64,000 nt of DNA, from NCBI RefSeq assembly GCF_003334815.1, contig NZ_QOWO01000011.1, one strand, 5' to 3'. Source of the stretch: Escherichia coli (lineage in GTDB: Bacteria; Pseudomonadota; Gammaproteobacteria; Enterobacterales; Enterobacteriaceae). Shown here piece by piece: positions 20,112-38,826 of the stretch (its first letter is position 1; each line of letters starts with the position of its first letter). The notes under the pieces are model-generated. The model did not search any database, was not told the origin of the DNA, and saw only the letters and a program-made list of their open reading frames with translations. A program made the position numbers and the translations under genes.

Positions 20112-22577
<2,466 letters not shown>

Positions 22578-22594
22578 GTTCACCAATAAATAGA

Positions 22595-22620
22595 ACGGGG
22601 CCAAAGGGTCCCGTTTTTTT
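22595..22620 (+). terminator. Rho-independent terminator after glgP
   Basis: AACGGGGCC-aaa-GGGTCCCGTT followed by T7. Confidence 0.7.
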
Positions 22621-22693
22621 CCGCCATCATTTCGGAAAAGTGTCCAGAAGGGGCAAGGGGACTCGGGGAGTATAATTTCACCATTCAAAAAGA

Positions 22694-22999
22694 ATGGAAA
22701 GAATAATGCAAAACAGAAAATGGATTTTGACCTCGCTGGTAATGACTTTTTTCGGCATCCCCATACTGGCGCAATTTTTGGCGGTGGTTATTGCCATGCT
22801 GGGTGTCGGACTTGCCGGTATTATTGAAGTTTGTAATATCCTTATCACGCCAACAATTTACCTTCTGCTCAAAATTTTTATGCTGGCGCTGGGCGCATTA
22901 ATGCTATTTTTCTCGGGGCGAGTGGGGAACGTGCCTGAGTTTTGTTACGTTGGGTATGATGGCGTGGGCTTTGCGGTAATTCCCCGAATTAAAAAGTAG
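22694..22999 (+). CDS. Hypothetical small hydrophobic protein (about 101 aa)
   Basis: ORF between glgP and glpD with two predicted membrane helices; weak SD; real coding status uncertain. Confidence 0.3.
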   Translation: MERIMQNRKWILTSLVMTFFGIPILAQFLAVVIAMLGVGLAGIIEVCNILITPTIYLLLKIFMLALGALMLFFSGRVGNVPEFCYVGYDGVGFAVIPRIKK

Positions 23000-23031
23000 G
23001 TTAGATTTTTGACAAAGTGCGCTTTGTTCAT

Positions 23032-23129
23032 GCCGGATGCGACGTGAACGTCTTATCTGGCCTACAAGACCATGCAAATTCAATATATTGCATAAACCAC
23101 GTAGGCCTGATAAGCGTAGCGCATCAGGC
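23032..23129. repeat. REP/BIME element (two inverted REP units)
   Basis: GCCGGATGCGACGTGAACGTCTTATCTGGCCTAC ... GTAGGCCTGATAAGCGTAGCGCATCAGGC. Confidence 0.8.
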
Positions 23130-23192
23130 AGTTTTGTGTTTGTCATCAGTCTCAGGCCAGATTGAAATCTGACCTGATCACCTTACGTTAAT

Positions 23193-24698
23193 TTACGACG
23201 CCAGCGATAACCTCTGCTGCGTATACTCCACCAGCCACTGACTCACACGAGATTGTTGATCCGCATTTAGCCACATGCCTTGTTTTGTGCGACGCCACAG
23301 GGCGTCGTCGGCGCGGCGGACCCATTCGTGATCCACCAGGTATTTCAGCTCCGCTTCGTAGAACTCATGACCGAAATCTTCCCCGAGATCGCTTACCGTT
23401 CCCGCATTGCCGAGCAGCAGCTCGCTGTTGCTGCCGTAAGTGCGAGCGTAATGACGCGCCAGCGATTCAGTCAGGAACGGATAGCGGCGGCGCAGGCGAG
23501 CGGCATAATCGTCGCGGTCGCCTTCAATGGCGCCACCCGGTAGCACACTCTCTTTCGTCCATGCCGGGCCAATACCCTGATAATACGGCGTTAGTTTTTC
23601 CAGCGCATGTTCCGCCAGTTTTCGGTAGGTGGTCAGCTTACCGCCGAATACCGACAGCAGCGGTGCTTTGCCATTTTCATCATGAATATCAAGGGTGTAA
23701 TCACGGGTAATAGCCTGCGGCGAGTCGGACTCATCATCACACAGCGGACGCACACCGGAGTAGGTCCAGACGATATCGTCACGGCTTAACTGCTTTTTAA
23801 AGTGCGTGTTATACACATTCAGCAGGTAATTGATTTCACTCTCTTCAATCTTCACCGCTTTCGGATCGCCTTTGTACTCGACATCGGTAGTGCCGATGAT
23901 GGAAAACTCGTCCATCCACGGGATCACGAACACAATACGTTTATCTTCGTTTTGCAGAATGTAGGCTTGCTTCTGGGTATGCACGCGCGGCACCACAATA
24001 TGGCTGCCTTTGATCAGGCGAATGCCATAAGGCGAAGGCAGATGCATCCCGTCGTCGAAGAACTGTTTCACCCACGGGCCGGTGGCGTTAACCAAGCCGC
24101 GCGCTTGCCAGCTATATTTTTTGCCGGTATCGATATCTTCCGCTTCCACAATCCACAGGCCGTTTTCGCGGCGAGCAGAGGTGGCGCGAGTCCGAGTAAG
24201 CACTTCGCCGCCTTTACGCACCACCATCTGGGCGTTGGCGAGTACCAGACGGGCGTCGTCTACCCAACAGTCAGAATATTCGAATCCGCGCTTAATTTCC
24301 GGTTTTAACACTGAATTTGCGCCAAAACGCAAACCAGTTGATCCCGGCAAGCTGGTGCGTTTACCCAGATGATCGTACATAAACAGACCAATGCGAATCA
24401 TCCACGCCGGGCGCAGATGCGGACGATGTGGCAGGCGAAAACGCATCGGGAAGGCGATATGCGGGGCCATTTTCAGCAGCACTTCACGTTCAGCCAGCGC
24501 CTCGCTGACCAGGCGGAATTCATAGTGCTCAAGGTAGCGCAGGCCACCGTGAATGAGTTTTGAACTGGCGGAAGAGGTCGCGCAAGCGAGATCCTGCGCC
24601 TCCAGCATCAGCACGGATAAACCGCGTCCAGCGGCGTCTGCCGCGATACCAGCACCATTGATGCCGCCCCCTATCACAATCAGATCTTTGGTTTCCAT
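23193..24698 (-). CDS. glpD: Aerobic glycerol-3-phosphate dehydrogenase (FAD)
   Basis: ORF-track frame 23193..24713; start at ATG 24696-24698 (METKDLIVIGGGINGAG...); FAD-binding GGGxxG; 501 aa. Confidence 0.94.
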   Translation of the reverse strand: METKDLIVIGGGINGAGIAADAAGRGLSVLMLEAQDLACATSSASSKLIHGGLRYLEHYEFRLVSEALAEREVLLKMAPHIAFPMRFRLPHRPHLRPAWMIRIGLFMYDHLGKRTSLPGSTGLRFGANSVLKPEIKRGFEYSDCWVDDARLVLANAQMVVRKGGEVLTRTRATSARRENGLWIVEAEDIDTGKKYSWQARGLVNATGPWVKQFFDDGMHLPSPYGIRLIKGSHIVVPRVHTQKQAYILQNEDKRIVFVIPWMDEFSIIGTTDVEYKGDPKAVKIEESEINYLLNVYNTHFKKQLSRDDIVWTYSGVRPLCDDESDSPQAITRDYTLDIHDENGKAPLLSVFGGKLTTYRKLAEHALEKLTPYYQGIGPAWTKESVLPGGAIEGDRDDYAARLRRRYPFLTESLARHYARTYGSNSELLLGNAGTVSDLGEDFGHEFYEAELKYLVDHEWVRRADDALWRRTKQGMWLNADQQSRVSQWLVEYTQQRLSLAS

Positions 24699-26105: not shown

Positions 26106-26864
26106 ATGAAACAAACACAACGTCACAACGGTATTATCGAACTGGTTAAACAGCAGGGTTATGTCAGTACCGAAGAGCTGGTAGAGCATTTCTCCGTCAG
26201 CCCGCAGACTATTCGCCGCGACCTCAATGAGCTGGCGGAGCAAAACCTGATCCTGCGCCATCATGGCGGTGCGGCGCTGCCTTCCAGTTCGGTTAACACG
26301 CCGTGGCACGATCGCAAGGCCACCCAGACCGAAGAAAAAGAGCGCATCGCCCGCAAAGTGGCGGAGCAAATCCCCAATGGCTCGACGCTGTTTATCGATA
26401 TCGGCACCACGCCGGAAGCGGTAGCGCACGCACTGCTCAATCACAGCAATTTGCGCATTGTCACCAACAATCTCAACGTTGCTAACACGTTGATGGTAAA
26501 AGAAGATTTTCGCATCATTCTCGCCGGTGGCGAATTACGCAGCCGCGATGGCGGGATCATTGGCGAAGCGACGCTCGATTTTATCTCCCAGTTCCGCCTT
26601 GATTTCGGCATTCTGGGGATAAGCGGCATCGATAGCGACGGCTCGCTGCTGGAGTTCGATTACCACGAAGTTCGCACCAAACGCGCCATTATTGAGAACT
26701 CGCGCCACGTTATGCTGGTTGTCGATCACTCGAAATTTGGCCGTAACGCGATGGTCAATATGGGCAGCATCAGCATGGTAGATGCCGTCTACACCGACGC
26801 CCCGCCGCCAGTAAGCGTGATGCAGGTGCTGACGGACCACCATATTCAACTGGAGCTGTGCTGA
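26106..26864 (+). CDS. glpR: Glycerol-3-phosphate regulon repressor (DeoR family)
   Basis: 252 aa; N-terminal HTH, DeoR-type sugar-phosphate domain. Confidence 0.93.
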   Translation: MKQTQRHNGIIELVKQQGYVSTEELVEHFSVSPQTIRRDLNELAEQNLILRHHGGAALPSSSVNTPWHDRKATQTEEKERIARKVAEQIPNGSTLFIDIGTTPEAVAHALLNHSNLRIVTNNLNVANTLMVKEDFRIILAGGELRSRDGGIIGEATLDFISQFRLDFGILGISGIDSDGSLLEFDYHEVRTKRAIIENSRHVMLVVDHSKFGRNAMVNMGSISMVDAVYTDAPPPVSVMQVLTDHHIQLELC

Positions 26865-38726: not shown

Positions 38727-38739
38727 AGTGCGGTTGATG

Positions 38740-38826
38740 CCGGATGCGATGCTTGACGCGTCTTATCCGGCCTACTAATTCATCCCGAATCGTAGGCCGG
38801 ATAAGGCGGTCACGCCGCATCCGGCA
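38740..38826. repeat. REP/BIME element between malQ and gntT
   Basis: GCCGGATGCGATGCTTGACGCGTCTTATCCGGCCTAC ... GTAGGCCGGATAAGGCGGTCACGCCGCATCCGGCA. Confidence 0.85.

Follow-up and report, generated by a model that had tools for sequence, protein, structure and literature searches.

One described feature between glgP and glpD of Escherichia coli is yzgL (b3427), annotated in K-12 MG1655 as a 'putative uncharacterized protein YzgL' of 93 aa at 3563724-3564005 of NC_000913.3. Mentions of yzgL/b3427 in the literature are in lists, and among the papers found none is, by its title, a functional or translation study. One such mention lists it as a predicted OmrA target. The same position in other strains is occupied by the gene for a 502-aa PstS family protein (e.g. 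WP_122987171.1, WP_000982774.1, WP_122987105.1), and the glp-glg interval has been listed as a structural hotspot on the basis of synteny (PMC13185298). The third described system is BIME-1, a z1 and a y REP in single copy, with a long L linker between them in which an IHF site is frequent (PMC3333891).

The window considered here is a stretch of 64,000 nt from a single E. coli contig, and the gap under study is 22578-23192, which lies between the glgP stop and the glpD stop. glgP is on the plus strand (20130-22577) and ends at 22577, while glpD is on the minus strand with its stop at 23193 onwards. The whole interval is explained by known entities, namely the glgP terminator, the pseudogene remnant yzgL and a BIME-1. 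We argue with high confidence that the gap is a scar left when the island of the 502-aa gene was deleted, with yzgL as what remains of it, and that a standard BIME-1 sits beside the scar. Both the identity of the ORF and the type of the repeat turn out to be already known.

Each of the two flanking genes has a hairpin close to its 3' end. The initial annotation placed a terminator after glgP and this is borne out: an 11-bp hairpin on the plus strand (22592-22617) runs into a 7-T tract (22614-22620), together spanning 22592-22620. The hairpin folds with a dG of -17.1 kcal/mol (z -3.59) and none of 200 shuffles was equally stable. Its core and the T tract are kept in 8 of 8 aligned alleles, with variation at loop or adjacent columns 35 and 37 and in the length of the tract. 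A simple pattern scan for terminators did not list it; the hairpin was found by folding. Folding also gives a hairpin at 23152-23177 on the glpD strand (minus), 15 nt downstream of the glpD stop and without a trailing U tract. It has a dG of -19.2 kcal/mol (z -3.75), again with 0/200 shuffles as stable, and it is kept in the O157 and BL21-type alleles. This is probably the 3'-end structure of glpD.

The ORF that had been reported in this gap exists. It covers 101 codons on the plus strand (22694-22999), and its product has a GRAVY of 1.19 with two hydrophobic blocks by hydropathy, at about residues 10-45 and 46-77. The hint that it might be an under-annotated small membrane protein finds no support, since the ORF is already annotated as yzgL/b3427, PGAP calls it incomplete, and its parent is the 502-aa gene. 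The identification comes from a megablast with the gap as query, covering 5,426 complete E. coli genomes, and from comparison of annotations. The locus is the same as in MG1655, between convergent glgP and glpD. Compared with NC_000913.3 3563724-3564005 it has 281 identities in 282 nt, and both start and junction coincide. The annotated MG1655 gene starts at what is ATG 22706 here and ends at what is 22987 here. The figure of 101 codons was counted from the upstream ATG at 22694, whereas the K-12 annotation has 93 codons, and the ORF here runs past the lost stop to a TAG at 22997-22999.

PGAP annotates only 22703-22924, as a pseudogene named 'protein YzgL, incomplete; missing C-terminus', and in a more divergent strain it names the yzgL piece 'phosphate ABC transporter substrate-binding protein'. 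The RefSeq start of the 502-aa proteins and of the yzgL pseudo-CDS is an ATA one triplet upstream of the conserved ATG (window 22703; L002 4124). O157:H7 carries an ATG where this ATA sits in the others. We consider ATG 22706 a more plausible start than ATA 22703. Searches of the ORF against Pfam, NCBIfam and PADLOC matched no family. A search for protein homologues returned only short YzgL forms and fragments; the 502-aa parents were absent from it and were found by DNA comparison. All relatives of the ORF are either the deletion allele itself or fragments and N-termini of the 502-aa gene.

It is the DNA comparison that reveals what the ORF once was. The whole gap matches in only 1,261 of the 5,426 genomes, which carry the K-12 lineage deletion allele. 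In the other genomes only the first 350 nt match, and the annotation over them is a complete 'PstS family phosphate ABC transporter substrate-binding protein'. About three quarters of the complete genomes have an island of 3 or 4 genes between glgP and glpD, with 885-901 genomes carrying the O157/BL21-type island and 2,278-3,021 the CX05-type island. Strain CX05 has four genes here, encoding proteins of 502, 236, 255 and 201 aa. O157:H7, C41(DE3)/BL21, KFu014 and HCM-26C-1 have three, encoding the 502-aa protein, a 330-aa PstS-like lipoprotein and a 200-aa membrane protein. Examples of the island are L002 4124-7735 (CX05 type), L004 1926-5054 (O157:H7) and L007 1467-4595 (also of three genes). 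The island is uncharacterised and has at least 2 gene contents; in the 4-gene type the 502-aa transmembrane and PstS-like protein is accompanied by three hypotheticals, one of them 'YbbD family'. PADLOC matched no defence model to any of the island proteins, so there is no support for reading it as a defence island.

Within residues 1-200 of the 502-aa protein there are about five or six hydrophobic segments, which form an N-terminal multi-helix membrane domain. Pfam PBP_like_2 follows at residues 247-482 (E 3.8e-30), as a C-terminal, PstS-like periplasmic binding domain. TIGR02136 is matched at an E of 3e-35 but short of its curated cut-off, and solved PstS proteins in the PDB are matched at an E of about 1e-18. 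The alleles of this gene are deeply divergent, with a dS of 0.29-0.44, yet their dN/dS is 0.11-0.15. The intact gene is under purifying selection.

The gap is a composite of the two ends of this island. Window positions 22578/22579-22927 match the 5' end of the 502-aa gene, with 97.1-97.4% identity to CX05 and C41(DE3)/BL21 and 87.7% to O157:H7. The window has the upstream region, -10 hexamer and start of the intact gene, and the first 73 residues are 88-99% identical to those of the 502-aa proteins. By DNA identity and hydropathy, these 73 codons (22706-22924, plus strand) hold the first hydrophobic helices of the membrane domain. In contrast to the intact gene, the window is without residues 74-502, and so without the larger part of the membrane domain and all of PBP_like_2, and the downstream island genes are absent too. 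From 22920 to 23192 the window follows the intact locus colinearly, through the 3' end of its last gene and the BIME into the glpD flank (94.2% identity to O157, 90.9% to BL21; the O157:H7 counterpart is L004 4995-5268). Three-frame translation assigns 22925-22979 (plus strand) to the 3' end of that last gene, the one for the 200-aa membrane protein.

Between these two parts about 2.84 kb is lost (the equivalent of L007 1693-4535) at a 9-10-nt direct repeat, GGGGCGAGTG. Junction alignments place the sole surviving copy of this repeat at 22915-22924 on the plus strand. At the join the window reads CTCGGGGCGAGTG on the left and GGGAACGTGCC on the right. The left parent reads CTCGGGGCGAGTG followed by TGGGCGGACG, which begins TGGGCGG after the join. 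The right parent of the BL21/O157 type reads GAGTGAGTG and then GGGAACGTGCT (also given as GAGTGAGTG and then GGGAACGTGC), and that of the KFu014 type reads GTGGGGCGAGTG and then GGTAATGTG, which begins GGTAATG after the join. The last island gene in its own frame ends with (E)WGTCLSFVTLGMMAWALR and a stop, the TAA at 22977-22979. The yzgL frame crosses this segment out of frame and reads GNVPEFCYVGYDGVGFAVIP past the join. Since the join falls out of frame after 73 codons, the ORF is a chimera of 73 real codons and frame-shifted filler. The odd composition of yzgL is explained too, since its hydrophobic helices come from the start of the membrane domain that was lost and a frame-shifted tail follows them. 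One would recognise a truncated pseudogene by in-frame homology to the N-terminus of a longer intact gene at the same locus, and by loss of the defining domain together with an out-of-frame C-terminus past a mapped breakpoint; yzgL has all of these. In our view the ORF is most likely a remnant without function. A chimeric query for an intact island with exactly the K-12-type 3' flank found none, the best match being BL21-type with a 3' flank of 91%, so the immediate ancestor is a reconstruction rather than something observed.

The end of the ORF in this window differs from yzgL in one further respect. Genome comparisons show that position 22985 (plus strand) has changed from T to C, which turns the TGA stop of yzgL into CGA and adds Arg-Ile-Lys-Lys, a gain of 4 codons over b3427. 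It is the only difference from MG1655 in the 1,000 nt around yzgL. The position is T in MG1655, WP7-S17-ESBL-04 and JMF1 as well as in the intact O157 and BL21-type alleles, and its presence in those intact alleles makes T the ancestral base. C at 22985 is found in none of the 5,426 complete E. coli genomes. For a 103-nt segment, the best of the 1,855 matching genomes is 99.0% identical, with one mismatch, and the RIKK extension is carried by 0 of 117 protein homologues. The initial annotation described two helices followed by a lysine-rich tail. The two hydrophobic blocks are real, but 'lysine-rich' is overstated, as the tail is GNVPEFCYVGYDGVGFAVIPRIKK with 2 Lys, and its final RIKK is a private four-residue accident of this window. 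The stop loss is without consequence for the annotation of yzgL elsewhere. A resequencing note gives a point difference in yzgL at 3563722 (PMC8406316). This cannot be equated with the change seen here, as 22985 corresponds to NC_000913.3 3563726.

Over 38 kb the window differs from MG1655 by 8 substitutions, the change at 22985 among them, and one indel. Its strain is K-12-like but is not MG1655. At window 3281-3292 the IS1E insertion that interrupts yrhA in MG1655 is absent. At 26256 the window has one extra C relative to MG1655; going by its position it may lie in glpR, which is annotated as a pseudogene in MG1655 and may be intact here.

We propose the following history. The ancestral state, which most E. 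coli still have, was an island of 3-4 genes at this place, headed by the 502-aa gene. The direct repeat stood there twice, at about codons 70-73 of the first gene and again close to where the last gene ends. Recombination or slippage between these 9-10-nt repeats would then have removed about 2.84 kb in the K-12 lineage. The promoter region, the start and 73 codons thereby came to be joined out of frame to the final 55 nt of the last gene, giving the 93-aa yzgL. The private mutation of the stop codon lengthens it by 4 codons in this window. The remnant may still be transcribed, and weakly translated, from signals that it inherited. The BIME-1 belonged to the 3' flank of the island and lies between the two convergent transcription units.

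Other deletion alleles suggest that this has happened more than once. The allele of strain HS-02 (L010) is 98.8% identical in its 5' part and 100% identical in its 3' part to an intact KFu014-type island. Its junction is an exact join at the GGGCGAGTG repeat of the KFu014 haplotype (L010 3170-3330 versus L008 1671-1692 and 4532-4560). Its divergence from the K-12 allele is 12.6% on the 5' side and 9.1% on the 3' side, and some of the differing bases lie within 3-15 nt of the junction. Because the two alleles differ on both flanks so near to the junction, we argue that the same 2.8-kb deletion very probably arose independently at least twice, directed by the repeat. The exact HS-02 allele is a singleton among complete genomes. 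A mixed-flank deletion allele, O157/KFu-like on its 5' side and K-12-like on its 3' side, is found in 38 further genomes.

One can imagine instead that yzgL is a genuine small membrane protein, translated, inserted in the inner membrane and kept for a function of its own, e.g. modulating another membrane protein. Several small E. coli membrane proteins do modulate other membrane proteins. We consider this very unlikely here, although a number of observations speak for it. In each of the four deletion alleles that were sampled the frame stays open, also where their 5' parts are about 12% different in DNA. Upstream there is a perfect TATAAT at 22671-22676 (plus strand, from reading the sequence), a -10-like hexamer without a recognisable -35, and across the same roughly 12% divergence this hexamer and both ATGs are invariant in 8 of 8 aligned alleles. 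A promoter pattern scan did not report the hexamer, there being no -35. It is possibly a promoter that came with the parent gene. The open frame and these signals carry no independent weight, because they are inherited from a parent under purifying selection. The upstream signals serve the intact gene, so their conservation says nothing specific about the remnant. The ORF is not conserved independently of its longer parent gene, and the frame of its tail is an accident of out-of-frame filler. No homologous family of small proteins was found outside the locus.

The initial annotation held that the ORF would be refuted if it had neither a translation signal nor a conserved frame. The translation signal is weak: the anti-SD duplex is -3.3 kcal/mol for ATG 22706 and -0.9 kcal/mol for ATG 22694, against a mean of -2.45 over all ATGs in the window. 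The frame is indeed conserved, but this conservation is inherited from the 502-aa gene and so cannot decide the matter. Remnants compared with the nearest intact allele have a dN/dS of 0.33-1.05, each pair having only 4-10 changes, too few to show constraint, and a fourth pair, L003 against BL21, has a single synonymous change. Both of the changes specific to the K-12 remnant are nonsynonymous (A to V and N to K), which argues against a protein kept for its own function. So do the losses that occur: the stop codon is gone in this window, and in the French isolate F829 an IS1 splits yzgL about 18 codons in (L012 531-1423). The transcript is detected on arrays, where yzgL changed 2-fold on a Cpx/NlpE microarray (PMC2731931). 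The deletion allele is common, with its 1,261 genomes of 5,426, and the same fusion arose at least twice by the above argument, both of which could be taken as signs of a useful product. However, the recurrence of an identical fusion is dictated by the repeat and needs no selection.

A related scenario is that the two-helix peptide is made from the promoter and start that it inherited and is kept, or regenerated, for a role in the membrane, or else that loss of the PstS-like island was itself selected. If it were true, selected loss of the island would explain the at least 2 independent identical deletions. We give this little credence. The deletion scar with its non-functional remnant is the better account of the ORF.

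The last feature of the gap is the repeat. The initial annotation described two inverted REP units forming a BIME, and this stands, at 23032-23129. Unit 1 is a Y-type REP of 34 nt, GCCGGATGCGACGTGAACGTCTTATCTGGCCTAC, on the plus strand (23032-23065), recognised from pairing, folding and the consensus. A 35-nt L linker at 23066-23100, unstranded, was characterised by motif scan and carries an IHF-like site and a small palindrome (23078-23093). Unit 2 is a short Z-type (Z1) REP of 29 nt, GCCTGATGCGCTACGCTTATCAGGCCTAC, inverted on the minus strand (23101-23129) and recognised by its consensus match. The typing of both units as Y and Z1 follows the Gilson/Bachellier consensus. The arms at 23052-65 and 23101-14 are 93% complementary, and the units pair in the predicted fold. 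Unit 2 gives one exact match to the short Z-type consensus, with 0.00 expected by chance, and the element is far beyond what chance would give. The IHF-like site ATTCAATATATTG at 23078-23090 agrees with WATCAANNNNTTR at 12 of 13 positions; one such site was found, versus 0.15 expected per region of this size. The window has a further REP at 38739-38775, GCCGGATGCGATGCTTGACGCGTCTTATCCGGCCTAC, which was the sole match of a pattern whose loop was set to 13 nt; the Y REP of the gap escaped that pattern.

The likeness to the BIME-1/RIB/RIP elements of E. coli is close. There are two inverted REPs of different types in a single non-tandem copy, the linker is long and has an IHF-like site, and the element is extragenic at the 3' ends of convergent transcription units. 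The differences are small: in the Y unit a T stands in place of the A/C of the consensus (CTTATCTGG), and one position of the IHF core does not match. The repeat beside yzgL is an ordinary single-copy BIME-1. It belongs to the 3' flank of the O157/BL21/KFu/K-12 type, which 1,855 genomes carry. The one CX05-type locus that was compared (L002 7736-7786) has no BIME. It has a different glpD 3' flank with a GC-rich hairpin of its own, GCCCGGTTG...CAACCGGGC. As this flank differs too, the whole gap, including the region downstream of glpD, differs between haplotypes.

By analogy with other BIME-1/RIB elements, this one would bind IHF. Its stem-loops would, again by analogy, protect the 3' ends of the glpD transcript and of the island or yzgL transcripts. 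What the initial annotation said of REP clusters in general, that they can stabilise mRNA and serve as insertion targets, is standard.

The REP pair could also be considered part of a dedicated sRNA gene, resembling naRNA4/REP325 or ES036/CssrF. Rfam does give matches to both families. ES036/CssrF (RF02751) scores 31 bits on the linker, at window 23066-23108 (E 9e-4), and naRNA4 (RF02564) scores 20-29.5 bits on the REPs. However, all of these scores are below the gathering thresholds, which are 37.6 and 59.5 respectively. The 107-nt unit, linker included, is also dispersed, with a median of 18 occurrences per E. coli genome at 89-100% identity. We regard an sRNA gene here as very unlikely. The sub-threshold scores and the dispersed unit mean that the Rfam families themselves are best read as containing REP/BIME sequence. 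ES036 matches the BIME-1 linker over the full length of its model. This suggests that the ES036 family was itself built on a copy of a BIME-1 linker.

Finally, an intergenic frame that is open by chance and never coded for protein would fit the lack of a Pfam/NCBIfam match and of a strong SD, but it is refuted by homology to the intact 502-aa gene, with whose N-terminus 73 codons align in frame at a dN/dS of 0.2-0.4 for those codons in the intact gene, and we consider it almost certainly wrong.

This reading prevents the mistaken entry of a pseudogene remnant among the new small membrane proteins, which in itself matters little. There are modest by-products for population genomics, which leave our assessment of the window unchanged: a junction mapped to a 9-10-nt repeat, evidence of a recurrent deletion, and a deeply polymorphic island between glgP and glpD that encodes membrane-anchored PstS-like proteins.
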